Shown piece by piece: positions 5,263 to 52,625 of a stretch of 64,000 nt of DNA. The position numbers were made by a program, and so were the translations under genes. The first letter of the stretch is position 1, and each line of letters opens with the position of its first letter. Under the pieces are notes generated by a model, which was not told where the DNA came from, searched no databases, and saw nothing but the letters and a program-made list of their open reading frames with translations. The stretch lies in sequence record MH383160, one strand, 5' to 3'. This DNA is from Escherichia phage UB.

Positions 5263-5847
5263 TTATCGTGTTATAGTTACGGCTTTTACATCACGCTTTT
5301 TATAGTACTGATTCCAGATATTGCGGGTTAAACCGTAATCAAGTACTTTAATAAGTCCATTACGATCCTGGCCGATATTCTGTTTTCTGATATCTCTTAT
5401 CGTTAGTGTTGATAATGTATCATCAACGTGTTGTAGTGCATCAGCAAAGCGGTGCTGGCGTTCGATTGCATTACGTTTAATATTGTACTTTAATTCATTG
5501 CACGCGTTTACGTGCTTCACACTGCCTTTGCTTGCAGTACTCAACCGATCCATAACGATAAACATATTATCAGGATCGCATAAATGCATATGCACTTTAG
5601 CAAAATACTGTTTCAACTGAGGGCGGTCATAGTCTAAAAAATTCCATACCTTACATTCAGTTTCATTTTGTTCTACACCCGCATCACAATTAGCGACCTT
5701 AATCACTAACCGATCATTTAAAGCGAATACAATACGGGAAGAACCCGCACCGATGATCTCCAGACCAGCTAACCGACAAGCTGAAAGGATCTCTTTGTTG
5801 GTTTCCATTTCTGACAGGGTACGGATGAATTTAGTATAATTACGCAT
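5263..5847 (-). CDS. putative protein-kinase-like protein (194 aa)
   Basis: IGAGSSRIVF...VIKV resembles a glycine-rich loop plus catalytic Lys; DIRKQNIGQDRNG and VLDYG resemble catalytic and DFG-like motifs; AGGAGAA SD at corrected start. Confidence 0.5.
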   Translation of the reverse strand: MRNYTKFIRTLSEMETNKEILSACRLAGLEIIGAGSSRIVFALNDRLVIKVANCDAGVEQNETECKVWNFLDYDRPQLKQYFAKVHMHLCDPDNMFIVMDRLSTASKGSVKHVNACNELKYNIKRNAIERQHRFADALQHVDDTLSTLTIRDIRKQNIGQDRNGLIKVLDYGLTRNIWNQYYKKRDVKAVTITR

Positions 5848-5878
5848 TGCATGTTCTCCTTGAGTTAATGAAACTATC

Positions 5879-6121
5879 TTACAGTACTTTACTATCAATG
5901 GCAACTACTTTTTTCACACTAACCGCGTGAATCACTTCCTTAGTGTTTTTAGTACTGAATACTTTCGCCGTGCCTTGTTCTACTGCAATACGATAACGAC
6001 CGTTAACATCAACCATATTAATAAAGTCCGGTGTACTAAACCGAGTAGTTTTACATTTCAGTACTGTTAACAGTTCCACCAGTGATGTAGTTTCTTTGAT
6101 ACGTTTTTCTAAAGTAATCAT
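5879..6121 (-). CDS. hypothetical protein (80 aa), paralog of 6179..6397 at DNA level upstream
   Basis: Start moved to MITLEKRIKE; 5' region nearly identical to that of the next gene. Confidence 0.5.
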   Translation of the reverse strand: MITLEKRIKETTSLVELLTVLKCKTTRFSTPDFINMVDVNGRYRIAVEQGTAKVFSTKNTKEVIHAVSVKKVVAIDSKVL

Positions 6122-6178
6122 TTTGTTTTCCCCGTGTTGGTATGTACATATAGTACTAAAACATTTGAGTACTGTCAA

Positions 6179-6397
6179 TTAGATAATATTATATTTCTTA
6201 AAATAAAATGCGTCCTGTGTTGGTTGATACTCAATGCCATTGCCGTTATTGACTTCAACTAATAAACCTTTGTCAATAAGTTTTTTAATAGTACGATACC
6301 CTTGTTGAAAATTGGTAAAATGTGAATCATTACGAAAGGTATAACCGTGCTTAACTGCTTCATCAATAGTTTTCTTTTCGATTTTAGATAATTTCAT
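6179..6397 (-). CDS. hypothetical protein (72 aa)
   Basis: Start moved to MKLSKIEKK; TTGACA promoter and GGGAGAAAC SD upstream. Confidence 0.5.
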   Translation of the reverse strand: MKLSKIEKKTIDEAVKHGYTFRNDSHFTNFQQGYRTIKKLIDKGLLVEVNNGNGIEYQPTQDAFYFKKYNII

Positions 6398-6450
6398 TTT
6401 GTTTCTCCCGTGTTGGTATAGATATATAATACTAAAACATTTGAGTACTG

Positions 6451-6705
6451 TCAACGTGATATTAGTTTTATTTTCTTATTATACTGTTGATGCTCATAAA
6501 GGTTTATCTTTCCAGTATTCTCAATTACTATTCTGTTGTTGGTGTCCACGTCGATTACACGTAGTTTCCCGTTGCTTAACTTCCTAGGCAATAGGTTACC
6601 ATTAATAAACTCATTAGCAAGCTGTACGGCCTTTGTGATGATTCTCTGAGGTGCTTTATAGTGTACCCGTAAGATGTTATCTTTATATAGTTGAACCTTA
6701 ATCAT
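6451..6705 (-). CDS. hypothetical protein (84 aa)
   Basis: ORF; SD-like AGGACAAAC upstream. Confidence 0.5.
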   Translation of the reverse strand: MIKVQLYKDNILRVHYKAPQRIITKAVQLANEFINGNLLPRKLSNGKLRVIDVDTNNRIVIENTGKINLYEHQQYNKKIKLISR

Positions 6706-6716
6706 TTTGTTTGTCC

Positions 6717-6744
6717 TATAAAAAAGGCGGGAACTGATCCCGCC
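6717..6744 (-). terminator. Rho-independent terminator
   Basis: Minus strand GGCGGGAtcagTTCCCGCC followed by a T run, just 3' of gene 6767..7171. Confidence 0.6.
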
Positions 6745-6766
6745 GTGTTGTTAGTACTGCAAGTTA

Positions 6767-7171
6767 TTAGATAACCTGGCGGCGTTTACTGTATACTGTT
6801 ACACGATTACCCTTACGATCATGTCGGATCTCTTTCTGGTTGCGAATCAGTTCACTTGGACGCTTAAGGTTTGCCAGGTGATCCGCGTGAGTCCATGCGG
6901 TGTGGTTTACCTGTACTTTGATATCAGAATCAGCGATAAACTCATCTTGTGCATCAAGTATTGACGCCAGTAAATCCGCTCGTTTTAGTTCTGCTGCTGT
7001 TAGTACTGGCTCCGGTGAATTCACAATATCAGAGATCTCTTTGAACTGTACGGCCCAGCGTTGACCTTTCGGTGCATCTTTGCCCATGTCTTTAAATGTT
7101 TCGCCTTCCTCGCGTGCAACAATACGGGCAGCTTCACGGGTAGCGTAAAATTTAGTAATCATGGTATACAT
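6767..7171 (-). CDS. hypothetical protein, paralog of 18477..18743
   Basis: Shares YFATRE.AR..AR..G.TFKDMG..RWAV and C-terminal HDRKGNRVTVYS with 18477..18743. Confidence 0.55.
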   Translation of the reverse strand: MYTMITKFYATREAARIVAREEGETFKDMGKDAPKGQRWAVQFKEISDIVNSPEPVLTAAELKRADLLASILDAQDEFIADSDIKVQVNHTAWTHADHLANLKRPSELIRNQKEIRHDRKGNRVTVYSKRRQVI

Positions 7172-7257
7172 CCTATTAGTTAAGTTAGTACTACAAGTTA
7201 GAGTCTATTATAAAGTACTATCTGGGCAATGTCAAATAGTACTTTAAATGGATTCTA

Positions 7258-7581
7258 TTACATGTCTTTCTTACGTTTTACATCGTGGTAGCGAACTGTT
7301 ATTTCTTTGTTGATCTCTTCCTCGATGCGGTGAATAACTTTTTCTTTCGGGTTGAAACCTATAACGGTTTCTTTAATGATCTCCAAGCCCGTGTATTCGC
7401 CTTGTGTACCGTAACCGTATGTAAAGGTTTCGTGTCCCAGGTCTTCCCAGCGGTCGCCAATTAACGCAGACACGTAGCAAGAGTGGTAAGTATTGCCGTG
7501 TGAATCAGTCCACCGATTAACATTAATGTCAAAGGAGGTTACAATTTTCAGTTCCACTTTCTGGGCAAGGATCATAGCCAT
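7258..7581 (-). CDS. hypothetical protein (107 aa)
   Basis: Start moved to MAMILAQ; the track start lies in the 5'-UTR hairpin. Confidence 0.5.
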   Translation of the reverse strand: MAMILAQKVELKIVTSFDINVNRWTDSHGNTYHSCYVSALIGDRWEDLGHETFTYGYGTQGEYTGLEIIKETVIGFNPKEKVIHRIEEEINKEITVRYHDVKRKKDM

Positions 7582-7669
7582 TTTTATTTCTCTCTCTTTG
7601 TTAGGAGGGGAACCGTTTCCCCTCACTTGATGTAAACTATTATACAGTACTAAGATACTTTGTCAATAC

Positions 7670-7852
7670 TTATTTTTTGGAAAGTTTACGCATTAATTCT
7701 ACGCTTTCTTGTGAACGTTTTGCTACCTGGCAAGCTGTATGGGTAGTAAACATTTTTGTATAGTCTGACGCTTTGCCACCGAACCGAGCGGCACGTTCAC
7801 GGGCACTTGGAACTAATACTATTTCTTTCTTGCAGATAGTGCACTTAGCCAT
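7670..7852 (-). CDS. hypothetical small basic protein (60 aa)
   Basis: ORF; promoter plus hairpin cassette upstream, near-identical to that of the neighbouring gene. Confidence 0.5.
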   Translation of the reverse strand: MAKCTICKKEIVLVPSARERAARFGGKASDYTKMFTTHTACQVAKRSQESVELMRKLSKK

Positions 7853-7939
7853 TTTTATTTCTCTCTTTTAGTTAGGAGGGGAACCATTCCCCTCGCTTGA
7901 TGTAAACTATTATACAGTACTAAGATACTTTGTCAATAC

Positions 7940-8215
7940 TTAATTATTGTAAATGTCGTGAATAGTGATAAAGTTTTTACGACCGTAAACCTGCAAATCA
8001 GTATCAATAAAGTGCTTATCTAGTACATCCTCGACGCTTAACGCGGTGTCGTGGATATCTTCGTAGAATTGAGGATCTACAATCTTGCTTAAGTCATCCG
8101 GCGTTAACTTATCATTTAACCATTGAACCGCCTGGATATCTGCTTCACGTTTCCAGTCTTCCAGGTTAGTAGTCAGTACTTGCTCGATTTCGTTAGCTGT
8201 CAGTAGAATCCGCAT
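7940..8215 (-). CDS. hypothetical acidic protein (91 aa)
   Basis: ORF; promoter cassette upstream. Confidence 0.5.
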   Translation of the reverse strand: MRILLTANEIEQVLTTNLEDWKREADIQAVQWLNDKLTPDDLSKIVDPQFYEDIHDTALSVEDVLDKHFIDTDLQVYGRKNFITIHDIYNN

Positions 8216-8438
8216 TTTTATGTTTCCTTATCAGTGGTTGATGTAAGTATTATACTCTTTTACTTTCTATTGTCAAACTATTTTATCAGGGGAGGTTTTC
8301 TTATGTCTTACTCCTGGACTACTTAACGGGGTTACTTGTTTCGTTCCCCGTCCTGATGTAAAACATTATACTTGATTCTAAGTACAATGCAAGTACTTTT
8401 TAAAAATAGTTTTCAGTACTAGCCACCAGCATATAATA

Positions 8439-8521
8439 GATACATTTATGCACCCGGTGGGCTGAATTGTTTCTATGCGTATATAATAGCAAAGGGACTG
8501 ACCGGAGTCAATCCCTTTTTC
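8439..8521 (-). repeat. About 85-bp intergenic repeat, copy 3
   Basis: Direct comparison with 2915..2997. Confidence 0.6.
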
Positions 8522-8955
8522 AAATATTTTTAAACTTCTTTCGGGTTGCGATATGTGATAGCGTTCGGGTACATTTGTTTAATGTTATTCCATGCCTGGT
8601 TAACATTGTAACCACTTGAGCGAATCAGTTGGTTACTACCGACACCTTGAAACACTACTTCGAATAAGAATTCTTTCATGCTTTCACCTCGCGATCTGCT
8701 TTACCTTTACGCCAGGACATTACTAATTGTTCGCGTTGCCATAAGTCGAGTGATACAAAAAGTTTTGCGGTATCACTTTTAGGATACTCTCCAGTAGTAC
8801 CTAACCGATAAAACAGATCTTTCAGTACTGATAATTCTACTTGAATCATTTTATTACTCCTGATTGCGTTAATACTTCTACAATTGCATGAATGATCATA
8901 AGTACAGCTAAAACAATAATCATCGGATTCATTTGCATAAGCTGTACTCCTTCTA

Positions 8956-9168
8956 TTAATCTTTCAGCCAATGATCTTGAATGAATTTTTCACAGAATCC
9001 CTGTTTCATGGATTCTAACAGGCGTTCGCGGTGAGCGGCGGCATATTGCTCAGTACTATGCGTTACGCCAGGCTGATAACGTGATACCCCATCCGGTCCG
9101 ATGTATTGTACATCCCACGGTTTTTCGTTAGTATCAGACCATTTACGAACGATTAGTTGACCTTGCAT
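8956..9168 (-). CDS. hypothetical protein (70 aa)
   Basis: ORF; promoter plus hairpin cassette and AGAGGAAAG SD upstream. Confidence 0.55.
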   Translation of the reverse strand: MQGQLIVRKWSDTNEKPWDVQYIGPDGVSRYQPGVTHSTEQYAAAHRERLLESMKQGFCEKFIQDHWLKD

Positions 9169-9251
9169 TTTTCTTTCCTCTCAGTGGGGAGAATCATTTC
9201 TCCCCTTCATGTAAACTATTATACAGTACTGGGTTGCATTGTCAATAGTTT

Positions 9252-9575
9252 TTATTCACCTTGTTTGAATTTAGTTTTCTGCATTGATTCCATGATTGCA
9301 ACCAATACGCCGTGGATCTCGCTTAACGCGGAATCACTAAAAGCATTAATGAATAGTCGATCATTCTCGCGAATATTTTTAATGTACTTTTCAGCAGTAG
9401 TTGCGAATTCATTCAACGGTAGATCAAATGCTTTATCCCATGATGGATGGCGTAATTGTAACAGTACTGGATTATCACGATCACCAGGGGAAAACGTACC
9501 AGTGATGAAACATACGCCCGGAATACTTTCGAACTGGCAACGGACTTCCTTTGTGATAGTAGTATGAATGTACAT
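9252..9575 (-). CDS. hypothetical protein (107 aa)
   Basis: ORF; GAGGATAA SD upstream; co-transcribed with 9603..9791. Confidence 0.5.
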   Translation of the reverse strand: MYIHTTITKEVRCQFESIPGVCFITGTFSPGDRDNPVLLQLRHPSWDKAFDLPLNEFATTAEKYIKNIRENDRLFINAFSDSALSEIHGVLVAIMESMQKTKFKQGE

Positions 9576-9602
9576 TTATTGTTATCCTCTATTAAATTAA
9601 TA

Positions 9603-9791
9603 TTACAGTTTATGAATCAATTCTTTATCTAAGCGATAGCGTACATTATTAATAGTAACGGCATTGTTTTTAATGCTACGCTGTACAGGTCCACCAGCAA
9701 TAACAAATGTTGCTTTATTGCCCCGAACAATGATAGCACTTCCAGGATTACCGAAATCATCTTGTACTAAAATACTTGATAAGTTTTCCAT
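9603..9791 (-). CDS. hypothetical protein (62 aa)
   Basis: ORF; promoter plus hairpin cassette upstream. Confidence 0.5.
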   Translation of the reverse strand: MENLSSILVQDDFGNPGSAIIVRGNKATFVIAGGPVQRSIKNNAVTINNVRYRLDKELIHKL

Positions 9792-9870
9792 TTTTTATTT
9801 CCTCTTAGTAGGGGAAGATGTTTCCCCTTGATGCAAGTACTATAACAGTACTGAAAACTAAATGCAAGTA

Positions 9871-10227
9871 CTATGATAAAATCATGATAGGATATTCACT
9901 ATCGATCAGTACCTCGAATCCGAAACCTTCGTACCATTCTTTAAGATTAAAGGCGTTATCTTCTCCCGTATCGCATTCTAAAATGATACAATCTGAATCA
10001 TCGGCGGCATCAATAAAGGCATTCATTAATTCGTTACCTTCACCATTGCCCCGACTATCAGGATCAACATAAAGAGAATCAATAAACGCTACACGGTCAT
10101 AATCAAGATCCGGTGCAATGATTCCACGTTTAACAAACCAGTACTGCAATTGTGCTACTTTGCCCTGTACTTGATAGCCAGTGATCTCGCCATTGTCAGT
10201 AGTACGCGTGATATGTTGTATTCCCAT
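9871..10227 (-). CDS. putative GNAT-family N-acetyltransferase (118 aa)
   Basis: VDPDSRGNGEGNELMNA resembles the acetyl-CoA-binding motif A (Q/R-x-x-G-x-G/A) of GNAT enzymes; size fits a minimal GNAT fold. Confidence 0.45.
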   Translation of the reverse strand: MGIQHITRTTDNGEITGYQVQGKVAQLQYWFVKRGIIAPDLDYDRVAFIDSLYVDPDSRGNGEGNELMNAFIDAADDSDCIILECDTGEDNAFNLKEWYEGFGFEVLIDSEYPIMILS

Positions 10228-10290
10228 GATTTCAATCCTCAGTTAAGATATAAAATATTATAAACTATCTTTCAGTACTGTCAATACTTT

Positions 10291-10548
10291 TTATCTCATA
10301 GATCTATGCCAACAATTACGCGGATCTCTTTTAAAAGTACTATCATGATCCTCCTGGCAAGTAATACAATACATGCACCCTATAACGGCCTGGCGTCGAT
10401 TCTCAGGAATTTTATCGCCGCAGTCGAGGCAATGTACCAGTGATTCTCTTTGTGCGTTAATTTGCTTTCTAGCGTGGTTAACGGCGGCCTGAATCACTGC
10501 GTTAATCTCGTCTTGTTCGGCCCCATCTTTCGCGAATCCTACAGCCAT
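10291..10548 (-). CDS. DksA/TraR-family C4 zinc-finger protein (85 aa)
   Basis: C-x2-C-x17-C-x2-C (CLDCGDKIPENRRQAVIGCMYCITC) with RRQA, typical of TraR/DksA C4-type fingers. Confidence 0.6.
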   Translation of the reverse strand: MAVGFAKDGAEQDEINAVIQAAVNHARKQINAQRESLVHCLDCGDKIPENRRQAVIGCMYCITCQEDHDSTFKRDPRNCWHRSMR

Positions 10549-10879
10549 TATTTTAACCTCATTATAAAAATACTATAGTACTGTAATGCGACAATAATAT
10601 TACTTGTTCTTACTTTTTCCAATCCACATGATACCACATATTCATCCCCATATGTGCGGAACGATACACCATGAAAATTTTTATACACTTGCACTACTAA
10701 TCATAACCTTTCGTCTAACCAACTGCATAGAATTATACTACTTTACGCAAATTGATCAAGTATTGATCAGATCATTTTTTGATCAATATTATACAGTTAC
10801 ATTTGTGCACCCTATGGGTTAGTGACGTTCTCGTCTTGATGTAAGTATTATGCCAGTACTGGATGATATTGTCAATAGT

Positions 10880-11077
10880 TTATTTTAATTTTTTTCTGTC
10901 ATTGATTAATGCTTTCAGTACTATACTAATGATTTGCAATGATTCATCAATGACTATAAAATTATTTTCTTTCATTAGATGATAGTTACCATTGATTGTA
11001 TATTCTAAGGAGTACTGTTTACGTTTAATTTTTGATAATGTTTCTATTTGTTTTTGTACTGATTTCATGCTAATCAT
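10880..11077 (-). CDS. hypothetical protein (65 aa)
   Basis: ORF; very AT-rich; start context weak. Confidence 0.4.
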   Translation of the reverse strand: MISMKSVQKQIETLSKIKRKQYSLEYTINGNYHLMKENNFIVIDESLQIISIVLKALINDRKKLK

Positions 11078-11688
11078 TGTTAAACGTCCTGTAACGCATT
11101 CTAACGAGATAAACGGTTGAGTACTGGCATTGTATAGGGTAATGAATTAAAGCCCACCAGCGTTAACCAGTGGGCTATAATCTTACATCTTGCGGATAAT
11201 CTTAACAGTATCTTTCACCGATTTACCGTCTTGCTGACATTGCTCGATCATTGCGTATTGTTCTGCGGTCAGATCCTCGCCAGTTTTTGCCAGTACTGCG
11301 TCGATGAATGAATCCAGTGCGATCATTTTGTTTCTCTCTTAGGTTAAGTTAACTACTGTTGATAAAACTTATTATACAGTACTATCAAACTATGTCAATA
11401 ACTTTAATAGTACTGGTAATATATTTTAGCGGTAGTCGTCGTATGCTTTATTCACCTGGCGAATGTAACTTTCAAAGGCTTCGTCTACCGTTTCATACTC
11501 CCGAACATAATCACCATAGGAAACTACATACATACCTTTTTGATCTTCAAACGTCATGATGATAGAATCCAGACCAACGATTTCAGTTTTTGCGATGATA
11601 GCCATTTTTTAATTCCTTAGTAGTGTAGTTGATAAAACTTATTATGCCAGTACTATCAAACTATGTCAATAGCACTGTGATAATATTT

Positions 11689-11901
11689 TTAGTTAATAAT
11701 AGTCAGTGTAAAATTGTAATCCCCTGCCTGGTATAGTACTTTATCGCCGAACGTGCCGACACGTTTCATATTGCAATAGATACCCATAACACTTTTTACA
11801 TCTTTGATATTCCGAACGCCTGTAATATCTTTATTAAAATAATCGTGGTCAGAAAATAAAACTTGTTTTGCATTTTTCAGTACAGTGCGGATATTAGCCA
11901 T
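11689..11901 (-). CDS. hypothetical protein (70 aa)
   Basis: ORF; promoter plus hairpin cassette upstream. Confidence 0.5.
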   Translation of the reverse strand: MANIRTVLKNAKQVLFSDHDYFNKDITGVRNIKDVKSVMGIYCNMKRVGTFGDKVLYQAGDYNFTLTIIN

Positions 11902-11994
11902 TTTGTTTTCTCTCTGTTAGTGGGGAGAACTATTCTCCCCTTGATGTAAACTATTATACAGTACTATAATCTATTGTCAAACTATTTTTTTATA

Positions 11995-12336
11995 TTATTC
12001 GAAATCTTCTGGACCGGACTGATAATCATCTTCACCGTATGCACTTTCTAACCGCTCACCAGTGTAATCATCAGTTAAGCTATCATCCTCATAGTTCACG
12101 TCTACGCCTGTGATGTAAAACTGGCTATCGTCTGGATCATTGAAATTAATTTTTTGGATGTTTACAATAACTGTATTGATGCCCAGGACACCGCCATCAG
12201 CCGTTACAAAGTACTGATAGTTTTCACAACCGCCTGAATTGAAACCGTAATTAATTTCGGCCCGACCATCATTTAAACGCAGTGCCTGGGCAATGATTTC
12301 ATTTTCAAAGTTAGATTGAGCAATTGAGATAGTCAT
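11995..12336 (-). CDS. hypothetical acidic protein (113 aa)
   Basis: ORF; promoter plus hairpin cassette and AAGGAAAC SD upstream. Confidence 0.55.
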   Translation of the reverse strand: MTISIAQSNFENEIIAQALRLNDGRAEINYGFNSGGCENYQYFVTADGGVLGINTVIVNIQKINFNDPDDSQFYITGVDVNYEDDSLTDDYTGERLESAYGEDDYQSGPEDFE

Positions 12337-12460
12337 GATTCGTTTCCTTATTACCAGGGGAAACCGTTTCCCCTTGCGATGTAAAACATTATACGCTTAT
12401 TGAGATAGTTTGCAAGTACTTTTTAAAAATAGTTTTCAGTACTCAAACATTATACAATAG

Positions 12461-12546
12461 ATACACTCCTGCACCCTGTGGGCTAGTGAGCTATCTCTCA
12501 ATGAATATATAATAGCAAACTGGCTGACCGAAGTCAACCACTTTTT
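12461..12546 (-). repeat. About 85-bp intergenic repeat, copy 4 (hairpin variant GGCTGACCGAAGTCAACC)
   Basis: Direct comparison; the hairpin resembles the type found in the 44-59 kb region. Confidence 0.55.
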
Positions 12547-12769
12547 CATTTATTTTTAGCTTTTAGAATCGCCGCCTTTCGCGTCATGCCTTGCTTGATG
12601 TACTCATTTACTTTCGCTTTTTTAGCGTTTACCTTGTCTGCTTTCGTTTTAGGAGTACTGTAAATTATACCGTTAGGATTCATTTAAATCACCATAAAGA
12701 ATAGATAGGTTACTAACAATGCCGCGATCATTGCACCGACCAGGGCCGAACTGTAATAAGCTAATGATT

Positions 12770-12922
12770 TCATTTTTTAGCCTGAAAATAATGTTTAATT
12801 TGAGCGGCGGTCAGTGCACAATTACGCAGGAAGTTTTCTGTATAACTGCGTCGAGTACTGAAAGAAAATTGACCTTTACCGTTCCCGATAGTAACATCAA
12901 ACCGAGCATTATATTGTTTCAT
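12770..12922 (-). CDS. hypothetical small protein (50 aa)
   Basis: Start moved to MKQYNARF (GGAGA SD); the track's first Met is encoded by the hairpin loop. Confidence 0.45.
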   Translation of the reverse strand: MKQYNARFDVTIGNGKGQFSFSTRRSYTENFLRNCALTAAQIKHYFQAKK

Positions 12923-13219
12923 TTTGTTTCTCCTGTTCTTGGGGAGAATCATTTCTCCCCTTCATGTAAACTATTATACAGTACTAAAAACTAATTGCAA
13001 GTATTATTTTTTAGATTTACGTAAACTTTCTACCATCTCAGGAGTAAGCCCCAGCGGGTAGGAAACCACTTCATCCACAAAACGCAAAGGGAATACCCCA
13101 TCTAAAGTTGAACGTGCTTTCTTATTAGTACTCTTTTTTGATGCTTTCATTTCATATTCCTTAATTAGTGGGGAGAACTATTTCTCCACTTCATGTAAAC
13201 TATTATACAGTACTAAAAA

Positions 13220-13429
13220 CTAATTGCAAGTATTATTTTCTAAAAAATGTTTGTATGCTGAATCAACCACTCTTTCGATAACATACGCTAACGGCACGTA
13301 TCCAACTACATGACTACAATAAAAAGGACTACGATTAGAATCATCGTATGCAAATACTTTTTCAGGATCTGCATCAATCACATACATATTAACCTTTAAG
13401 ATGTCGATCTTATCCTGTACAGTAAGCAT
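13220..13429 (-). CDS. hypothetical protein (69 aa)
   Basis: ORF; co-transcribed with 13435..13707. Confidence 0.5.
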   Translation of the reverse strand: MLTVQDKIDILKVNMYVIDADPEKVFAYDDSNRSPFYCSHVVGYVPLAYVIERVVDSAYKHFLENNTCN

Positions 13430-13434
13430 ATTAA

Positions 13435-13707
13435 TTAACCTTTTAAGTACTGGCTTAAGTAGTCTTTTTGATCTTCGGTGATTGCAGTCATCTTCCCTAG
13501 TACTGGGTTGATGATATAATCCCCTGTAACGTCCTGTGACGCATTCTCAGGGTGTTTAACGGCTGGGGTAGCCATAGCCATTGCCTGGACTTGTTCGACG
13601 CTGTAACGCTCATAAAGGCGGCATTCTTCCGGTGTTAACATAGCATCAGTACGCTTCATCGGTTTAATGATGCTTTCGATCTCATTCAGTACTTGATTAA
13701 CGTTCAT
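13435..13707 (-). CDS. hypothetical protein (90 aa)
   Basis: ORF immediately downstream of 13759..14028. Confidence 0.5.
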   Translation of the reverse strand: MNVNQVLNEIESIIKPMKRTDAMLTPEECRLYERYSVEQVQAMAMATPAVKHPENASQDVTGDYIINPVLGKMTAITEDQKDYLSQYLKG

Positions 13708-13758
13708 GGTATAATCCCCAATATAAGCGGCCTAAAACGACCGCTAACGATGTTTTGA

Positions 13759-14028
13759 TTAATAGGTGTAAGGTTGACGCTCAAACAATGATTGCACGTT
13801 GTACGCCCCGCTAATGGGCTTTGCTGGCAAATCGATTTTATATTGTTCACGCTTAAAGATAATAAAACGGCAATTGTTTTTAACATCAAAATTGATTGAA
13901 CGTTCCAGGAGTTTTCCATCGTGCACAAATACAAGATAACCGCTTGGTACTTGTTTTGTAGTACTGGTTGCAACCATAGACCGACGAACATGAGTACCTG
14001 CATCGATTAAAGTACTGATATTTTTCAT
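13759..14028 (-). CDS. hypothetical protein (89 aa)
   Basis: AGGAAA SD and promoter upstream; preferred over the overlapping frame 13704..14003, which has neither. Confidence 0.5.
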   Translation of the reverse strand: MKNISTLIDAGTHVRRSMVATSTTKQVPSGYLVFVHDGKLLERSINFDVKNNCRFIIFKREQYKIDLPAKPISGAYNVQSLFERQPYTY

Positions 14029-14336
14029 TTTAGTTTCCTTAGTTGTCTTGATAAAATCTATTATGCCAGTACTATCAAACTATGTCAATAGTACTGTGAT
14101 AATATTTTTACTTACTTTTTGCTTTCTTAATTGCTTCCACCTGGTCGGCCCATTCTTTACCCCATACTTGTAAATTATAATGGTACTGGCAAAGAGCAAC
14201 GCCCCGCTTTAAACCAGTAATAGATTTTTTACCACATTGACAAGTTTTCATATTAGTTTCCTTGTAGTGGGGAGAATCATTTCTCCCCTTGATGTAATGT
14301 ATTATACTTTATTCGATTTACTTTGCAAGTACTTTT

Positions 14337-14564
14337 TTAATTTAATTCATCCAGGCAAAGGATACGCTCAACGCCCAAATCAGTTAAACTAATGGTCGGC
14401 ACTTGATAGGTTTCAATGTATGCTACAGTTGCCCACTGACCGAACTCATTAACGGCCCAGGTATTCATTGCATTTTGCAATTCCGCACCTGCCTTGTTAG
14501 TAATGACTGCAACTACTTGTTCGTTGCCAGTAGTACCAGATACGCGAGTAATGATAATAGCCAT
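14337..14564 (-). CDS. hypothetical protein (75 aa)
   Basis: Start moved to MAIIITRVSG, downstream of the 5'-UTR hairpin. Confidence 0.5.
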   Translation of the reverse strand: MAIIITRVSGTTGNEQVVAVITNKAGAELQNAMNTWAVNEFGQWATVAYIETYQVPTISLTDLGVERILCLDELN

Positions 14565-14801
14565 TGTTTTGATTCCTTTGATTTGGAAGGAGAACCGTTT
14601 TCCCCTCTCGATGTAAAACATTATACGCTAATCTATTAATCATGCAAGTACTTTTTATTACTTTTTGCAAAATACTTTAAACGCTCTCAATCGCATTCTA
14701 ACGACCTTAACGCCACCAGCTAGGGCGATGTATCAGATAATCAGTTTAATGCGTTAGAATCGATTATAGGCGGTGCTAGTGGACTGGAATACTATAGACA
14801 C

Positions 14802-14828
14802 AAAAAAGCCCACTGTTTAAGGTGGGCT
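14802..14828 (-). terminator. Rho-independent terminator
   Basis: Minus strand AGCCCACCttaaacaGTGGGCT plus TTTTTTG, 3' of 14850..15332; an identical hairpin sits at 15536..15564. Confidence 0.6.
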
Positions 14829-14849
14829 ATTGATTCAGTACTTTAATTG

Positions 14850-15332: not shown

Positions 15333-15535
15333 TTTATAAATCCTCAATTAAAGTTTAGTTTACGTTTATTAGTGTATCAAAGTTTTTTTGACGTGTCCAG
15401 TTTTTCGTTCGACTTACTGGCGGTCTACTTAGTGCTCCCCGTCTTGATGTAATACATTCTACGCCTTTTTGCGGTATTGTCAACTACTTTTTTAAAACTA
15501 TTTTCAAAGTATCTCAGTACTACAATACTACAAAA

Positions 15536-15564
15536 ATAAAAAAGCCCACTGTTTAAGGTGGGCT
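15536..15564 (-). terminator. Rho-independent terminator
   Basis: Same hairpin as 14802..14828, followed by a T run on the minus strand, 3' of 15582..15881. Confidence 0.6.
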
Positions 15565-15581
15565 AGTGATTCAGTACTATA

Positions 15582-15881: not shown

Positions 15882-15965
15882 TTGATTATCCTTAGTTACT
15901 AGGGGGAACCTCTCCCCCGTGCTATGTAAAATATTATACAGTACTAAAAACTAATTGCAAGTACT

Positions 15966-16941: not shown

Positions 16942-16996
16942 AACTTTTACTCCTGATAGTGTTTACCTGATATAAAGTATTATACGCCTTTATTGC

Positions 16997-47227: not shown

Positions 47228-47422
47228 CTAATCCTCGCTGAAGACAACAATAAGGAATGACACGAACAATGCCGCATAACAAGGAGCTATCTTCATGTAC
47301 CACGGGACTTCATAATACCATGTACCCAATTCATCCCACGAAAAGAGTATACTCAAACCGAAGCCGATTAGCGATAGTACAATAAAAGAAATCCAGAAAC
47401 GCTTTGAATATACTAATAACAT
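47228..47422 (-). CDS. small membrane protein (64 aa)
   Basis: Two hydrophobic segments. Confidence 0.45.
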   Translation of the reverse strand: MLLVYSKRFWISFIVLSLIGFGLSILFSWDELGTWYYEVPWYMKIAPCYAALFVSFLIVVFSED

Positions 47423-47460
47423 GTTATGTTCCTTTGTGTAACCGAAGTCAACCCTTTCCT

Positions 47461-47976
47461 TTAATAATTATTCATTTCATCTTTGATTTGTTCTTCAATT
47501 TCGTCGAACATATCAGTACTAGATTCGTTCTTACTACTTACGTTCTGCATATCTTTAACGTACTGTGGACATTCAACATCAGTAAACTTATACCACGTAG
47601 GCTTCATCTGGAGCTTCTCAATCAAACGATCACGAGACATTTTAATCTCTGACTCCGTTGGTACGTAGTCATTACAAAACTCAGCAGGGAAGCCGCTAAT
47701 GTCGTTTACTTCAGTGTTTTGAATCTTCATACCACGACGCAGACATTCGTTGACAATATCAATATGACGCTTCTGTAAGTACAATAACTTGTTGTAGAAG
47801 AATGTTACATGACCTGAACCCAACAGGTAAGTACTGTTAATTTTGAAATCACGAACTCGCTTACGTGCTTGAACGTGTTTTTGTACAGCACCAAATACAC
47901 GTGGGAGTTCACGATATTCAGCCATCAGATGTTGGTCAGCAAGTTCTTTAACGTGTACTAAGTTAATGCGTGTCAT
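47461..47976 (-). CDS. denV: Endonuclease V (pyrimidine-dimer DNA glycosylase), T4 DenV homolog with a C-terminal extension (171 aa)
   Basis: N-terminal about 135 aa closely match recalled T4 DenV ([47 protein letters not shown]). Confidence 0.9.
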
Positions 47977-48011
47977 GTATTCATCCTCTCGTTTCGATGA
48001 AATGATTATAG

Positions 48012-48037
48012 CAAAAAGGGCTGACCGTAGTCAACCC
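48012..48037 (-). terminator. Hairpin terminator/promoter cassette
   Basis: GGGCTGACCGTAGTCAACCC; the stop codon of 48031..48444 lies within the hairpin. Confidence 0.5.
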
Positions 48038-48444
48038 TTTTTTCTTTCAATTAAACATAATCTACCAGCATGTACCATGCGATGGTGATTAGAACAAAGA
48101 ATTACACACTTTCGAATTTCATCTTTGATAGATTCTCGACTTTTACTGAACATAGAACTTGGTGTATGTTCTTTGGTATTAGGTTCAAGATGATGAAAGT
48201 CTAAACATTCTGGATACTTCATCATGCAAATACTACAACCATAAAATGATTTAACTCTGGTCATGAAATCTTTATTTTTTCTTTTGATTTCTTCAAGTTT
48301 TTTTACATCAGTTTTTTTATTTCTGGTTTTCTTACTGGTAATATTACTACAACATTTGCATGTATTTCTTTGTTTCCCAGTATCACTTCTTATACCAAAT
48401 TCACTAATGTCTTTTTCAATATTACACGTGATACACTTCTTCAT
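48031..48444 (-). CDS. HNH-family endonuclease (137 aa)
   Basis: N-terminal CITCN..C..CC zinc ribbon; DFHHLEP....N..ILCSNHHRMVH matches the HNH motif. Confidence 0.65.
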   Translation of the reverse strand: MKKCITCNIEKDISEFGIRSDTGKQRNTCKCCSNITSKKTRNKKTDVKKLEEIKRKNKDFMTRVKSFYGCSICMMKYPECLDFHHLEPNTKEHTPSSMFSKSRESIKDEIRKCVILCSNHHRMVHAGRLCLIERKKG

Positions 48445-48746
48445 GGTTTAACCCATTTATTCAACAATTCACCCAACTTCACAATCTCATACCCATCCAG
48501 ATAGCCATAGGAACACTCAGGTGTTTCATAAGTTGAACCATCATGGATACCTTGACATTGGCTTTTGGAACGTTCAAGCAATCGTTGCAGTACTGATACG
48601 TCATCAAGAACGTAATACAAGTTAGCATATGGGTCCGTCACAATACAGTACTTAAACATGCCAAATGTATCAATCGATTTTTCAACCTTAGCAAATTGTT
48701 TCTTTTCTTTATTATACAATGCGTACATATTAATCTCCATAATCAA
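48441..48746 (-). CDS. hypothetical protein (101 aa)
   Basis: ORF; overlapping stop/start with neighbours. Confidence 0.5.
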   Translation of the reverse strand: MIMEINMYALYNKEKKQFAKVEKSIDTFGMFKYCIVTDPYANLYYVLDDVSVLQRLLERSKSQCQGIHDGSTYETPECSYGYLDGYEIVKLGELLNKWVKP

Positions 48747-49101
48747 GTTTAACTAACTTACCATCCAGATACCCAAAGTTTTCTGGCTTCGCATCTGAAT
48801 AGAAGAAGTCAGTACTTAACTCTGAATTCAATGCTAAAGCACACAACTCCACCCAAAATAAACCCCTATGTTGCACTGGCTTACAACGTTTCTGTACAGT
48901 TACTAGTCCAGTACATGATGACCACAATGTAGGACAGATACTACTATCACTACGATTAGAGTACTGCATCCACGAACGTTCATTGAGGTTAGCTATCATT
49001 CCCGTTAAGAATAACTTCCAGCTTTTGAAGGTTGGAATCTTGATAGCGTATTCCCCAATGAGGATAACAGTTCGGGTTGCACCTTTCAAATCTATATTCA
49101 T
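48730..49101 (-). CDS. hypothetical protein (123 aa)
   Basis: ORF. Confidence 0.5.
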   Translation of the reverse strand: MNIDLKGATRTVILIGEYAIKIPTFKSWKLFLTGMIANLNERSWMQYSNRSDSSICPTLWSSCTGLVTVQKRCKPVQHRGLFWVELCALALNSELSTDFFYSDAKPENFGYLDGKLVKLDYGD

Positions 49102-49293
49102 AATATTAGTACGAATCAGATTCCCAGTACTCGATTGCTTCTTTCAGCAATTCTTTAGCACGTTGTTTTGCAATGCGAGCGGGTAACAGATATGTGTACA
49201 TTAACTGACGCTTCACTTCATTCAGTGAAAGCTGTTCATGGTACAGTGCATCCATCAGTCGATTACGAGTACGTAGTTTCATATAAGTTATCC

Positions 49294-49848
49294 TTATTTC
49301 AAAGAATCATAGTAAGCAGTGTCAAAGATTGGAGTCATAATAACATAGTCAATACGGTCAATGTAAGTTGAACTCCACATTTCTGGTTTGTCATATAACT
49401 GACGCTCGCGTTCATTCATACGAGTCAGTACTTCTTCCAATTTACTACGTGAATCCATCAATGTATTACTCGAACCATAAGTGAAGTACTCAGTCCAATG
49501 ATATTCATATTCAGTACTGATAGATTGAATAGTACCATCTTTGAAATGAGCTAAGGCATAACCTTTCTCTACAAAGTTATCAGGTGGAAGAACACCATCT
49601 GGATTAGTTTTCAATGCTTGTGCTAACTTTTCTTTAATTTCAGTTAACGTGCATACTGAACGAATGTTCTTCAGGTTTGATACTTGAAAATCACTGTACT
49701 TTCCAAAGAAAAAGACACGCCAATCTTTAGGTTCATTATCAGATACGGTAGCATCAGGGTGATGGGCGAGTAAACGAAGAAGGCCAGCTTTGTGACCGTT
49801 AATGTAGATTTCATGGATGTGGTTAGCAGTTTTCTTAAAAGTAATCAT
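49294..49848 (-). CDS. hypothetical protein (184 aa)
   Basis: ORF; hairpin GGGGATGAACTTCTCATCCC just upstream. Confidence 0.55.
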   Translation of the reverse strand: MITFKKTANHIHEIYINGHKAGLLRLLAHHPDATVSDNEPKDWRVFFFGKYSDFQVSNLKNIRSVCTLTEIKEKLAQALKTNPDGVLPPDNFVEKGYALAHFKDGTIQSISTEYEYHWTEYFTYGSSNTLMDSRSKLEEVLTRMNERERQLYDKPEMWSSTYIDRIDYVIMTPIFDTAYYDSLK

Positions 49849-49924
49849 GGTAGATCCTCGATTGTAGGGATGAGAAGTTCATCCCCTTGATAAGCATTAT
49901 ACAGTACTGAATGTGTTTGTCAAC

Positions 49925-50305
49925 TCAAAATAAATTCATTTCATGTGCGTATTGTGGTTCAAGATAAGATAAGTTTTTGAAACTGTCTTTCAATTCTGCA
50001 TCATCTACGTACACAGTACCAGGTACATTCCCCATAGTGAAGCCAACCCAAACAGTCATGTTTCCAGTTCCTAAGCGGGGCATTGATAGCGTCCCGTCAG
50101 GTGAAACATCAAACGCTACACTAAAGTCATCCGTTACAACTTCCGAACCATTTTCCAGAATAATACAACCACGTTCTTTAAGCTTCTGAATGTGGATAGC
50201 AGCCTCTACAGCACGTTTAAAGTTATAATAAGACTCTTTATCCTCGAACATTGATTGTTTAACCAGACGCTTGTTTAGCTCGGTTACTTTGTGCATTTGA
50301 CGCAT
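49925..50305 (-). CDS. hypothetical protein (about 126 aa)
   Basis: ORF; start assumed at MRQMHKV adjacent to the upstream stop. Confidence 0.5.
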   Translation of the reverse strand: MRQMHKVTELNKRLVKQSMFEDKESYYNFKRAVEAAIHIQKLKERGCIILENGSEVVTDDFSVAFDVSPDGTLSMPRLGTGNMTVWVGFTMGNVPGTVYVDDAELKDSFKNLSYLEPQYAHEMNLF

Positions 50306-50559
50306 TACTTCAACTCCCACAGTTGTAGAATTTCATAAGAGCCTGGTGGTGCTGGATTGATAATCTCAGGGTATTCAGTACTGTTAGGATTACCACCAGC
50401 ATTGAACTCAGCAAGTAATAATTCGAGTTCATTCCTATCATGAACAACAAACACGCAATATCCAGTTCCTTCTTCAAGAACTGTAGTTGATCCCGCACAA
50501 TCCCATACGGTATCAATACATAATAATTCTTTAGTGTTTTTATTACGCAACGCAAACAT
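50305..50559 (-). CDS. hypothetical protein (84 aa)
   Basis: ORF. Confidence 0.5.
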   Translation of the reverse strand: MFALRNKNTKELLCIDTVWDCAGSTTVLEEGTGYCVFVVHDRNELELLLAEFNAGGNPNSTEYPEIINPAPPGSYEILQLWELK

Positions 50560-50568
50560 ATATGTCTC

Positions 50569-50937
50569 CTATCGATTCGGCATATTCTTTCGTAGTCGCA
50601 AGAGAAATTCAACCACTGACCATGTTGTAATGAAGGCAATATAAGTTGCAAGGAATCCAGTAAGAATGAATGCAACCAGCGTACTACCATTTGGGGAATC
50701 AGTTTTAATGCCGATGACACCATCGGCTACAGTGAAACATGTAGCCATTAATGTGTAACCTACGTACAACACAAAGAAAAACTCATTCTCCATTGAAGGA
50801 TAGAAACGGTTAAACACTTTATAAAATTTAAAGTACAGTAGGATTATACCAACAAAGGCATAGAATGTAAACAGTGTTGTTATAATATATGAGATTAGGT
50901 TCAAATTATACATATCAACGCTCCGGTAGATTATCAC
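50569..50937 (-). CDS. small membrane protein (122 aa), same family as 40907..43687
   Basis: Hydrophobic segments plus C-terminal LRLRKNMPNR tail. Confidence 0.55.
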   Translation of the reverse strand: MIIYRSVDMYNLNLISYIITTLFTFYAFVGIILLYFKFYKVFNRFYPSMENEFFFVLYVGYTLMATCFTVADGVIGIKTDSPNGSTLVAFILTGFLATYIAFITTWSVVEFLLRLRKNMPNR

Positions 50938-51262
50938 GTAATGTTTTAATTCGATGATACATTTTCATACCAATATTACCAAAGATACCATATCCAAGTA
51001 CTAAAATGTATGCAATAAGCATAGTAATAATTACTATAGTGCCAAAACTATAATGTACACTACTGATACCCATTGTAGTTTCAACGATTATTTGAGAAAC
51101 TGAAAGAATCAAAAGTACAACTACAATTGGATGATTTGGGTACATTCGGTTGAACAACGTTTTGTACTTAAAGAAGCACAGTACTCCACCGAATAAGAAG
51201 TAAACAATGTAAATGCAAGCAACAGCATAGGCAAACATGTTAGTGTAATAAATCATTACCAA
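50915..51262 (-). CDS. small membrane protein (about 110 aa)
   Basis: Hydrophobic; C-terminal IKTLRDNLPER. Confidence 0.55.
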   Translation of the reverse strand: MVMIYYTNMFAYAVACIYIVYFLFGGVLCFFKYKTLFNRMYPNHPIVVVLLILSVSQIIVETTMGISSVHYSFGTIVIITMLIAYILVLGYGIFGNIGMKMYHRIKTLRDNLPER

Positions 51263-51265
51263 TCC

Positions 51266-51604
51266 TTACTTTTCAGGGATATTAGAACGCCATATATCAA
51301 TGCGATGAACTAGTCCAAAGAACAACCATACTGGAACGGCAGCTATCATAACAACAAATGAAAACCCAGTCAAGACCGATACCAGATTTAATTCATCAGT
51401 ACTATACCCACATATCAGTACTTCTAATATTCCCCACGTACATGCACAAAACATCAAGAATGAAATTGGGGCATCATAGTAGATACGTTCATATAAAGTA
51501 GTGTATCGGAAGAATGCAATAATGTAGCAAAACATATAATACACCCAAACCAAAGATACTACATAAAATGATACTTTGTTTATTAATTCAAAATATTGTT
51601 CCAT
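51266..51604 (-). CDS. small membrane protein (112 aa)
   Basis: Hydrophobic; C-terminal IDIWRSNIPEK. Confidence 0.55.
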   Translation of the reverse strand: MEQYFELINKVSFYVVSLVWVYYMFCYIIAFFRYTTLYERIYYDAPISFLMFCACTWGILEVLICGYSTDELNLVSVLTGFSFVVMIAAVPVWLFFGLVHRIDIWRSNIPEK

Positions 51605-51606
51605 TT

Positions 51607-51888
51607 TTACCCCAATATATATTCAGAGAGTAATGTATTAGCTTCATCTTTGTTCTTAAGGTAATACATGTAATATAGATTCGGTTCACCATCTTTAGCA
51701 CTCAAATCGAAGTACTTTAAACTATGTACTTTCATAGTAAAAACAAATAATGACTTAAAACCAATTTCACCGTACTTAATAAACAGTTCATCCAAATGAA
51801 TGTAACTTTTTGATTTGGATAATTCTTTAACGTCTGCATCAATTTCAGATAAAAGATGCTTACCTATTAAGTTTTCAAATGAACGCAT
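51607..51888 (-). CDS. hypothetical protein (93 aa)
   Basis: ORF. Confidence 0.5.
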   Translation of the reverse strand: MRSFENLIGKHLLSEIDADVKELSKSKSYIHLDELFIKYGEIGFKSLFVFTMKVHSLKYFDLSAKDGEPNLYYMYYLKNKDEANTLLSEYILG

Positions 51889-51949
51889 GATTTTATCCTT
51901 TACCGCAATTTTTATGGTTTATTAAGAATACACCAGAACATCAGTTCTG

Positions 51950-52591
51950 TCAATAAAAAACTGGATCTTCTTCAGTAATTGGTATTTCTCTACGCACATC
52001 ACACGAAAGAGGATCAGTAATGAATACATTCCCATCTTTATCCATCATCACATTACTTGAATGAATGTCTGGTACAAAACGCCCGTGAAACTCTTTCATG
52101 ATGTTAGCAGCGACCGTTGCAATAGCAATCTCTTCAGAATTTCCACGCATATCATTCACTGAAGTAGCGTACTGACCAGCATGTGCATAAGAATATAAAT
52201 CTCCAATTTTAGTACTAACAAAGTCATCATAATTATTTTTTTGTTTAATTATAGGATAGTACTTGTCCATCTCATACCATCCAAAGTTTCCTTGTTCGTT
52301 TGCACTGTAAATCACTGGAAGAAACTTGGTTCCTGCGTTTTCAATGCAGTACTTTGCATAAGCACGAAAACCATCCCAGCGTGAAGTGGTTACTTTAAAT
52401 GCACGTCCAGGATAGTTTTTATGTTCAACTACTACAGAGTACATCCCCATTCCAAGCAAAGTAAGTCCAGCAGCTTTAACTTGTGGAAAGATTACGCGTT
52501 CAGCATAAGGAATATCAAACTCCATCGCACAACGAGTTTTTGATGGACGCAAAATGTCAATTAAAGTTTTGAATATTTCTTGCTTAGTCAT
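51950..52591 (-). CDS. putative kinase-like protein (213 aa)
   Basis: Start at MTKQEIF; GMGMYSVV...AFKV resembles a nucleotide-binding loop plus Lys; DIHSSNVMMDKDGNVFITDP resembles a kinase catalytic loop. Confidence 0.45.
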   Translation of the reverse strand: MTKQEIFKTLIDILRPSKTRCAMEFDIPYAERVIFPQVKAAGLTLLGMGMYSVVVEHKNYPGRAFKVTTSRWDGFRAYAKYCIENAGTKFLPVIYSANEQGNFGWYEMDKYYPIIKQKNNYDDFVSTKIGDLYSYAHAGQYATSVNDMRGNSEEIAIATVAANIMKEFHGRFVPDIHSSNVMMDKDGNVFITDPLSCDVRREIPITEEDPVFY

Positions 52592-52625
52592 TACTTTATC
52601 CTCTGTAGTTAATATCAACATCATA

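Follow-up and report, generated by a model that had tools for sequence, protein, structure and literature searches.

Two kinase-like genes in one phage genome

The genome of Escherichia phage UB (sequence record MH383160) carries, within the 64,000-nucleotide stretch analysed here (the window), two small open reading frames (ORFs) with the motifs of protein kinases, and the question they raise is whether both encode kinase-like enzymes and whether the two are related to each other. We call them K1 (5263-5847, minus strand, 194 aa) and K2 (51950-52591, minus strand, 213 aa). An initial annotation, made from the sequence alone, had noted in each a glycine-rich loop, a following lysine and a D-x-x-x-x-N loop, and had described the proteins as kinase-like and as unrelated. 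Both ORFs, on the minus strand, and their kinase motifs were confirmed. We consider it likely that this window encodes two separate minimal protein-kinase-like enzymes, K2 belonging to the jumbophage branch of the family of the T7 gp0.7 kinase (T7K) and K1 to a different family.

For nucleotide relatives we searched with positions 4500-6800 around K1 and 51000-53500 around K2. Both regions were matched by Asteriusvirus jumbo coliphages (PBECO4, phAPEC6, G17, Sharanji, 121Q and others), with identities of 99.1-99.5% around K2 and approximately 95-96% around K1, and the window is the terminal-repeat-proximal part of a PBECO4/G17/Sharanji-type Asteriusvirus genome. No third kinase-like ORF was found in the window when hidden Markov models (HMMs) built from the alignments A1, A2 and A3 were run against its 372 six-frame ORFs. 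Both proteins are already called kinases in GenBank records and in two papers, and the assignment as such is not new.

K2 is a homologue of the T7 gp0.7 kinase

Judged by its sequence, K2 is clearly homologous to the T7 gp0.7 kinase. It matched PHROG 15752 ('protein kinase; inhibitor of host transcription...') at 4.7e-92 and PHROG 2828 ('serine-threonine kinase') at 8.1e-17, and the T7 gene 0.7 protein itself matched the same two families (PHROG 2828 at 1.6e-169; PHROG 15752 at 1.7e-46, over residues 6-222). Comparison of the K2-family alignment A2 with T7K by hhalign gave a probability of 98.5% and an E-value of 3.6e-15 over T7K residues 61-230. A tblastn search with K2 matched 773 phage records, approximately 700 of them at less than 60% identity and without full-length coverage; the low-identity records that were sampled were T7-like (Autographiviridae-type) genomes of about 40 kb, for example T3 at 6e-8. 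A profile scan with A2 over viral contigs returned three loci only, all from jumbo phages. K2 had no match in our local copy of Pfam, and NCBIfam gave nothing meaningful for K1, K2 or T7K. The K2 homologues P0014-P0040 all carry a precomputed assignment to PF27024.1, a Pfam family absent from the local copy, and this newer family apparently covers K2.

The residues expected of a kinase are the ones that the family retains. In the K2 family alignment of 23 sequences, G47, G49, K66, D175, H177, N180, D193 and P194 were invariant (23/23), and they remained so in a second alignment to which six T7-like kinases had been added (G47 and G49 in 21/21). Across the jumbo-phage sequences and these six kinases the invariant positions were G47, G49, H57, K66, D73, Y78 and P92 in the N-terminal part and D175, H177, N180, M182 and I-T-D193-P194 further on. 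The corresponding strings in K2 are GMGMYSVV...AFK (G47, G49, K66), PDIHSSNVM (D175, N180) and ITDP (D193). Two positions vary: the glycine of the catalytic loop, present in 21 of the 23 family members, is a serine in K2, and the third residue of the DP motif is leucine in 22 of the 23 jumbo-phage sequences, as against the valine of the T7K DPV motif.

The initial annotation had proposed structure prediction as a check, and for K2 this gave a confident kinase fold. The AlphaFold2 model had a mean predicted local distance difference test score (pLDDT) of 92.4 and a predicted template modelling score (pTM) of 0.87. A Foldseek search of the PDB with this model returned 211 matches at E<=1e-3, and the 50 matches listed were all protein kinases or aminoglycoside phosphotransferases. 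In the model three N-terminal helices are followed by strands beta1-3, helix alphaC and strands beta4-5; the C-lobe consists of two helices (alphaD/alphaE), the catalytic loop and strands around D193 only. K2 is therefore predicted to adopt a protein-kinase-like bilobal fold, and the initial description of K2 as kinase-like is borne out both by its homology to the T7 gp0.7 family and by the confident predicted fold.

Compared with T7K, K2 is homologous over T7K residues 6-230, including the N-terminal helices, and shares with it G-x-G (G74/G76), K93, D195-x-H-x-G-N200 and I-T-D213-P214. In T7K the DPV motif (213-215) replaces DFG, its valine is less conserved in the jumbophage homologues, and G76F is a catalytically dead mutant (PMC13645617). 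The proteins differ in the third residue of this motif, DPV in T7K and DPL in K2, and in the shut-off domain (243-359), which only T7K has. K2 ends 18 residues past its DPL motif, and of the 359 residues of T7K the alignment covers none beyond residue 230; K2 therefore lacks the shut-off/DNA-binding domain. Identity between K2 and T7-like kinases is approximately 24-28%, and K2 resides in a 350-kb myovirus, T7K in a 40-kb podovirus.

The same family has been described in close relatives of the phage studied here. Bartolec et al. (Nature 2026) reported that T7K disarms bacterial defence systems by mass phosphorylation, and placed jumbophage proteins of G17 and of Salmonella phage Munch in the T7K family as members that have lost the shut-off domain (PMC13645617). 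At the nucleotide level the K2 region shares 99.2% identity with the part of G17 that contains G17_00108, a protein from which K2 shows no material difference; this orthologue is annotated as 'putative protein kinase' with the conserved domain PHA00451, and K2 is the G17 jumbophage T7K homologue in a sister isolate. In the Sharanji genome paper the K2 orthologue WNN14432.1 is named as a T7 kinase homologue.

K1 belongs to a separate family with kinase-like motifs

K1 matched PHROG 4301, labelled 'unknown function', at 7.9e-42. A K1-family profile searched against 1.84 billion representative sequences retrieved 2,065 proteins at E<=1e-3 and 248 at E<=1e-10, mostly of approximately 200 aa; the figure of about 2,000 representatives refers to clustering at 50% identity. 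None of the 120 homologues listed (of 544) had a Pfam domain or a name. Among cultured phages, homologues were found in Rak2-like jumbo phages only (59 records), namely Asteriusvirus, RaK2/K64-1, Munch-like Salmonella phages, CBB, fHe-Yen9-04, Xanthomonas XbC2 and Erwinia Kaldavass. The wider family occurs mainly on genomes of jumbo-phage size, and in metagenomes many of its members lie on contigs of 100-350 kb; one homologue was located on a 287-kb contig among phage-like genes, and no tandem K1-like paralogue was found beside this distant homologue on that contig. Three other metagenomic relatives, P0048 (693 aa), P0050 (923 aa) and P0054 (468 aa), contain two to approximately five tandem kinase-like modules, each with its own GxGSSR, VxK, QNxxE and LDYG motifs.

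For K1 we used three alignments, of 12 sequences (K1 and its 11 closest relatives), of 54 sequences and of 102 sequences (A4). The motif strings in K1 are GAGSSRIVF...VIK (G33, G35, K50), RDIRKQNIG (D152, N157) and VLDYG (D170). In the 12-sequence set G33, G35, K50, E64, D152 and D170 were invariant and N157 was present in 11 of 12. In A4, R38, K50, G57, Q60, E64, D170 and G172 occurred in all 102 sequences, D152 in 101, S36 in 99 and G35 in 95; the segment G57..Q60-N61 is a motif specific to the K1 family. The glycine-rich loop, the lysine and the D-x-x-x-x-N loop noted initially in the two proteins are thus among the most conserved columns of the family alignments, which argues that they are not chance matches.

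Searches with these profiles led to protein kinases. Against PDB sequences the 12-sequence profile retrieved 315 sequences at E<=10, with MKK4 and MKK7 first at 2e-4; among the matches listed, all were kinases except two haemoglobin chains, and the alignments extended from the glycine-rich loop to the DFG motif. The 54- and 102-sequence profiles again retrieved protein kinases (best E 4.6e-5); over the three profiles 315 to 539 PDB sequences were matched, and the statement that they are kinases holds among the matches listed. Alignment of A4 with human CDK2 by hhalign gave a probability of 78% and an E-value of 1.8e-5, with the glycine-rich loop on GEGTYG, E64 on E51, D152 on D127, N157 on N132 and D170-Y-G on D145-F-G. 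The Pfam families matched recurrently by K1-family members were Pkinase, PK_Tyr_Ser-Thr and ABC1. Five of the 102 members reached Pkinase at E<0.01, the best at 5.7e-6, and in PADLOC K1 weakly matched the PD-T4-6 kinase models. K1 itself aligned to Pkinase over residues 46-181 (profile positions 26-152), and the span and end points of this match would place K50 on the lysine of the VAIK motif. Weak non-kinase matches in the family were Pho88 and MksE in Pfam and a Type I specificity subunit in PADLOC. A phmmer search of PDB sequences with K1 residues 1-80 gave no matches. The kinase-like character suggested initially for K1 is thereby borne out at the level of profiles, with the catalytic residues in register.

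Names have been given to this protein before. The Sharanji genome paper lists WNN14351.1 (gp063), to which K1 is 97.9% identical, as 'another protein kinase, which function is unknown'. In fEgEco12 (PP777464.1) a 585-nt coding sequence (CDS) of K1 length in the matching region is called 'serine/threonine-protein kinase PRP4', in Turkey3 (PQ471515.1) a CDS in the K1-matching region is annotated 'PknA', and a kinase annotation lies under the K1 match in Turkey5, ph0011, SE_PL and fENko-Kae01. Most records, as well as PHROG 4301 and the protein databases, have the K1 orthologue as hypothetical or of 'unknown function'. PRP4 and PknA name the protein more specifically than a weak, generic similarity to kinase domains warrants.

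K1 and K2 are not paralogues

The description of K1 and K2 as unrelated proved too strong, since profiles of their families can be aligned with the motifs in the same order, if with weak statistics. When K1-family and K2-family profiles were compared by hhalign, the glycine-rich loop, the lysine, the D-x4-N loop and the aspartate equivalent to that of DFG fell on each other in order, at E-values of 0.008, 0.007 and 6e-4 and probabilities of 5-28%. The alignments A1 or A3 against A2 gave approximately 5%, and A4 against A5 gave 28% (E 6e-4), confined to the N-lobe. Run against the ORFs of the window, A3 (a K1-family profile) placed the K2 ORF second (E 0.016), and A2 placed the K1 ORF third (E 0.29). 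The second match of the K2-family HMM, at an E-value of 0.1, was a 487-aa ORF (44950-46413, minus strand) that matches PHROG 681 'endonuclease' at 3.1e-76; this second match is probably spurious.

Membership of K1 in the T7K family was considered and rejected. A1 against T7K gave a probability of 6.8%, and richer profiles reached 28% at best, for which reason K1 is treated as a separate family. Collinear motifs together with weak statistics are what lead us to regard the two as separate families of one superfamily. On this evidence K1 and K2 are not paralogues and are best described as members of two independent families of the protein-kinase-like superfamily; by its sequence K1 is a minimal kinase-like protein that has diverged strongly, and its family, distinct from that of K2, is uncharacterised.

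Is K1 a protein kinase, and are the two enzymes active?

Several observations speak against reading either protein as a working protein kinase. K1 matched Pfam Pkinase at E 0.0022 with 17.9 bits, below the gathering cut-off of 31.7. Its AlphaFold2 model, built from the 12-sequence alignment, had a pLDDT of 48.7, and the best Foldseek match of this model in the PDB, at an E-value of 0.73, was not significant. The catalytic-loop asparagine is present in 29 of 102 members of the wider K1 family and is otherwise S, H, T or Q. Canonical kinases have an activation segment and helices alphaF to alphaI; both K1 and K2 lack these parts, and the K2 model shows nothing equivalent to alphaF-alphaI. For K66 of K2 no acidic partner was recognised. 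Finally, Bartolec et al. leave the function and the promiscuity of the jumbophage homologues to future work (PMC13645617).

One alternative, that the motifs are coincidental resemblances in small phage proteins without a kinase fold, could draw on the sub-threshold Pfam score and the low-confidence model of K1. For K2 it is already refuted by the confident kinase fold and the unambiguous homology to T7K. For K1 it would have to account for three independent profiles that retrieve hundreds of kinases and almost nothing else, and for six catalytic positions that follow one another correctly, with the expected spacing, and whose columns are conserved more strongly than any others among the 102 family sequences. 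We regard it as extremely improbable. The assignment of K1 as kinase-like is one of profile similarity and residue conservation, not of fold.

How far K1 departs from known kinases can be seen by comparison with the Hanks-type enzymes (PF00069). K1 has the same motifs in the same order, with the glycine-rich loop, the VAIK lysine, the alphaC glutamate, D-x4-N and D-[FY]-G, and K2 is predicted to share their bilobal fold. Hanks-type kinases continue with an APE motif and helices alphaF-alphaI, whereas K1 and K2 end shortly past the DFG equivalent. K1 ends 24 residues after D170 of its DYG motif and has neither an APE motif nor alphaF-alphaI, and in place of HRD it has I-R-D, without the His-Arg pair. 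Minimal kinases are known among bacterial effectors, such as OspG/NleH and HopBF1. The K1-family profile weakly matched the N-lobe of another effector, SteC (8jbi_D, E 0.0015), and SteC-type minimal kinases resemble K1 in having cores of approximately 200 aa with an N-lobe and a catalytic loop and in lacking the activation segment and most of the C-lobe. The effectors differ in being injected into eukaryotic cells, whereas K1 acts in the bacterium.

A second alternative holds that K1 is not a protein kinase, and is instead a small-molecule, nucleotide or antibiotic-type phosphotransferase, or an enzyme of non-phosphorylating nucleotide transfer on a kinase-like scaffold. K1 lacks every C-lobe element that canonical kinases use for peptide substrates, as its early end after the DYG motif makes plain; the invariants peculiar to its family (R38 in the glycine-rich loop, G57, Q60) are not kinase hallmarks; the asparagine of the catalytic loop varies across the family; and two family members match the ABC1 atypical kinase-like domain. 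The top, non-significant Foldseek matches of the poor K1 model were APH(2'') aminoglycoside phosphotransferases, which carry no weight, since their E-values are 0.7 or higher and the pLDDT of the model is 49. Set against these points, the best profile matches of K1 were protein kinases (MKK4, MKK7, BTK, FGFR, CDK2) and not small-molecule kinases, and T7K is equally short after its DFG equivalent, yet when reduced to its kinase domain (residues 1-242) it is still active as a protein kinase, the shut-off domain being dispensable for this (PMC13645617). We consider a non-protein-kinase identity of K1 rather unlikely. Since T7K shows that truncated cores can be protein kinases, a protein is by analogy the most likely substrate of K1; a non-protein substrate is possible.

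It is less likely still, and in our view distinctly improbable, that K1, K2 or both are inactive pseudokinases serving to bind ATP or host proteins, as scaffolds or as inhibitors. The minimal folds without an activation segment would fit such a role, as would the variable asparagine in the wider K1 family and the DPL of K2 in place of DFG or DPV. Every residue needed for catalysis is, however, invariant within each orthologue set, which is the opposite of the usual pseudokinase pattern, and T7K homologues that share this set of motifs are hyperactive (PMC13645617).

Gene starts, flanking elements and neighbouring genes

The positions of both genes, their motifs and the adjoining signals are collected in Table 1.

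Table 1. Positions in the window of the kinase-like genes, their conserved motifs and nearby signals
Feature	Position	Strand	Evidence
K1 CDS, 194 aa, PHROG 4301	5263..5847	(-)	ORF; phrog_4301; PDB profile matches; hhalign to CDK2
K1 Shine-Dalgarno AAGGAG, 8 nt before ATG at 5847	5856..5861	(-)	Sequence reading
K1 glycine-rich loop G33-A-G35-S36-S37-R38	5734..5751	(-)	Aligns to CDK2 GEGTYG
K1 K50 (beta3 Lys, VIK) to E64 (alphaC Glu), with G57..Q60-N61	5656..5700	(-)	Conservation; E64 = CDK2 E51
K1 catalytic-loop equivalent D152-I-R-K-Q-N157	5377..5394	(-)	Aligns to RDLKPQN (CDK2) and RDIKPSN (MKK4)
K1 D170-Y-G, DFG equivalent	5332..5340	(-)	Aligns to DFG of MKK4, MKK7, BTK and CDK2
12-bp hairpin directly 3' of K1 stop, with embedded TTGACT -35 box	5224..5251	(-)	Copy of repeated terminator/promoter element
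Promoter match TTGACA-17-TACTAT, heading the unit ORF 5879-6121 + K1 (putative function)	6150..6178	(-)	Promoter scan
Second promoter match TTGACA-17-TATTAT (putative function)	6426-6454	(-)	Promoter scan
K2 CDS, 213 aa	51950..52591	(-)	phrog_15752; phrog_2828; hhalign to T7K; AlphaFold2; fold matches
K2 Shine-Dalgarno GAGGA, 7 nt before ATG at 52591	52599..52603	(-)	Sequence reading
K2 glycine-rich loop G47-M-G49; G49 = T7K G76	52445..52453	(-)	Invariance; hhalign
K2 K66, beta3 Lys = T7K K93	52394..52396	(-)	Invariant in jumbo-phage and T7-like kinases
K2 catalytic loop D175-I-H177-S-S-N180 = T7K D195..N200	52052..52069	(-)	Invariance of D175/H177/N180
K2 D193-P194-L195 = T7K DPV (213-215), replacing DFG	52007..52015	(-)	Alignment
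Composite terminator and promoter-like element upstream of K2 (putative function)	52620..52651	(-)	Hairpin and promoter scan

The start of K2 given here yields 213 aa, and the annotation of G17 has the same 642-nt CDS. All 22 homologues compared (22/22) share the start methionine at 52591 and begin M-T/K-K. A 224-aa form, as in the RefSeq record of PBECO4, was considered and rejected: its start is not common to the 22 homologues, and its upstream ATG lies within a predicted -10 hexamer. The 213-aa start is preferred because of the homologue starts, the spacing of the Shine-Dalgarno sequence and the position of the upstream ATG inside the -10 box.

Immediately upstream of K2 stands a 7-bp hairpin, GGTTGAC-TTCG-GTCAGCC, followed by a T-run, which would terminate transcription of the gene upstream, and at the position of this element a terminator is annotated in G17. 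K2 has in addition a sigma-70-type site of its own, TTGACT-18-TATGAT with a TG extension, whose -35 box is inside the hairpin stem; transcription from it is predicted to begin at about 52612.

Genes flanking K1 and K2 are almost all on the minus strand. A few genes downstream of K2 are two adjacent predicted membrane proteins of approximately 112-115 aa (50915-51262 and 51266-51604, minus strand), which look paralogous by a shared FF[RK]Y[TK]TL[YF]xR[IM]Y and a C-terminal NxPE[KR]; the one of the pair that was scanned falls in phrog_19285, 'unknown function'. About 1.1 kb upstream of K2, 53747-55294 (minus strand) encodes a 515-aa virion structural protein of phrog_20398, which matched in four stretches, so that the protein is internally repetitive. 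The presence of this structural gene means that the neighbourhood of K2 is not purely early-type.

Promoters, the terminal repeat and timing of expression

At a threshold of at least 11/12, the window had 33 sigma-70 promoter matches on the minus (coding) strand and 5 on the plus strand, and 22 of the 33 lay between 2.8 and 22.7 kb, before very small genes. The minus-strand bias was seen over 2800-22750 and 44500-61200, where several 12/12 matches precede genes of 60-110 aa. There are 12/12 matches around K1, which is the distal gene of a unit of two (ORF 5879-6121 and K1).

A repeated element accompanies these genes. TTGACTYCGGTCAG was present in 13 copies, where chance alone would give 0.32; every one lies on the coding strand, at minus-strand positions 2973, 5231, 8498, 12524, 14436, 44568, 46739, 47438, 48021, 52636, 53721, 53852 and 59404. 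Two copies adjoin the kinase genes, one just 3' of K1 (5231) and one just 5' of K2 (52636). In these two, the copies examined, a GC-rich hairpin carries a -35-like TTGACT in its stem; in the copy at 52636 a T-run and then a -10 box follow, and in that at 5231 a -10-like TATTAT comes directly after. From its sequence, TTGACTYCGGTCAG looks like a repeated composite terminator-plus-promoter element.

In related phages the counterpart of the first 22 kb or so of the window is probably the direct terminal repeat. The direct terminal repeat annotated in phage vB_Ec-M-J, 21.5 kb long, includes the K1 orthologue, and several related records contain two copies of it. The paper on phage CBB describes a homologous promoter-rich region of short ORFs that may extend into the terminal repeat, and reads it as an early host-take-over region. 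Since K1 stands in such an array of tiny, sigma-70-driven genes in the direct terminal repeat, it is probably expressed right after DNA entry. K2 likewise appears early-type, with a host-type promoter, as T7K does. The promoter-like sites and the terminal-repeat context together make early expression of both K1 and K2 plausible; a weakness of this argument is that the promoters are consensus matches only.

The surroundings include one block of opposite orientation, at 25978-40222 on the plus strand, with about ten genes mostly for proteins of 250-450 aa; the three scanned were RCC1-repeat proteins ('regulator of chromosome condensation', phrog_4219). For T7-like phages a depletion of Ser, Thr and Tyr in early proteins has been reported. 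Here the fraction of S+T+Y residues was 0.25-0.31, unusually high, in most proteins of this block and mostly 0.11-0.22 in those of the small minus-strand genes, with 0.134 for K1 and 0.174 for K2; this comparison involves no classification into early and late genes and no control for composition, and it is not used as evidence.

Proposed roles and significance

By homology with T7K, K2 would bind Mg-ATP through G47/G49 and K66, with N180 and D193 coordinating the metal and D175 acting as catalytic base. It may then phosphorylate serine and threonine, possibly also tyrosine, on host and phage proteins early in infection, in the service of host take-over or anti-defence. Such an enzyme would be free of the bias towards nucleic-acid-binding proteins that the shut-off domain gives T7K, and would not provide the kinase-independent transcription shut-off of that domain.

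K1 is most likely an active ATP-dependent phosphotransferase and would probably act at the very start of infection, right after DNA entry. More tentatively, and with considerable doubt, it may be an immediate-early second phosphotransferase of the terminal repeat that serves take-over or anti-defence, mechanistically distinct from T7K, with an arginine in the glycine-rich loop and a Q-N motif of its own, and possibly directed at a non-protein substrate.

K2 is a known member of a known family, and K1 comes from an unstudied family of a superfamily that is known. The finding holds but is largely ordinary: neither protein changes current concepts and, since both proteins had already been flagged as kinases, the value lies in a sharper annotation and in the choice of experiments. 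K2 is a natural version of T7K without the shut-off domain in a jumbo coliphage of therapeutic type, and its lack of that domain makes it a ready test of the kinase domain without DNA-directed targeting. K1 is the more open question, as a widespread kinase-like family whose gene lies here in the section of the genome that is probably the first to enter and the first to be expressed. If the tentative reading of K1 given above is right, Asteriusviruses would deploy two different kinases at the onset of infection.

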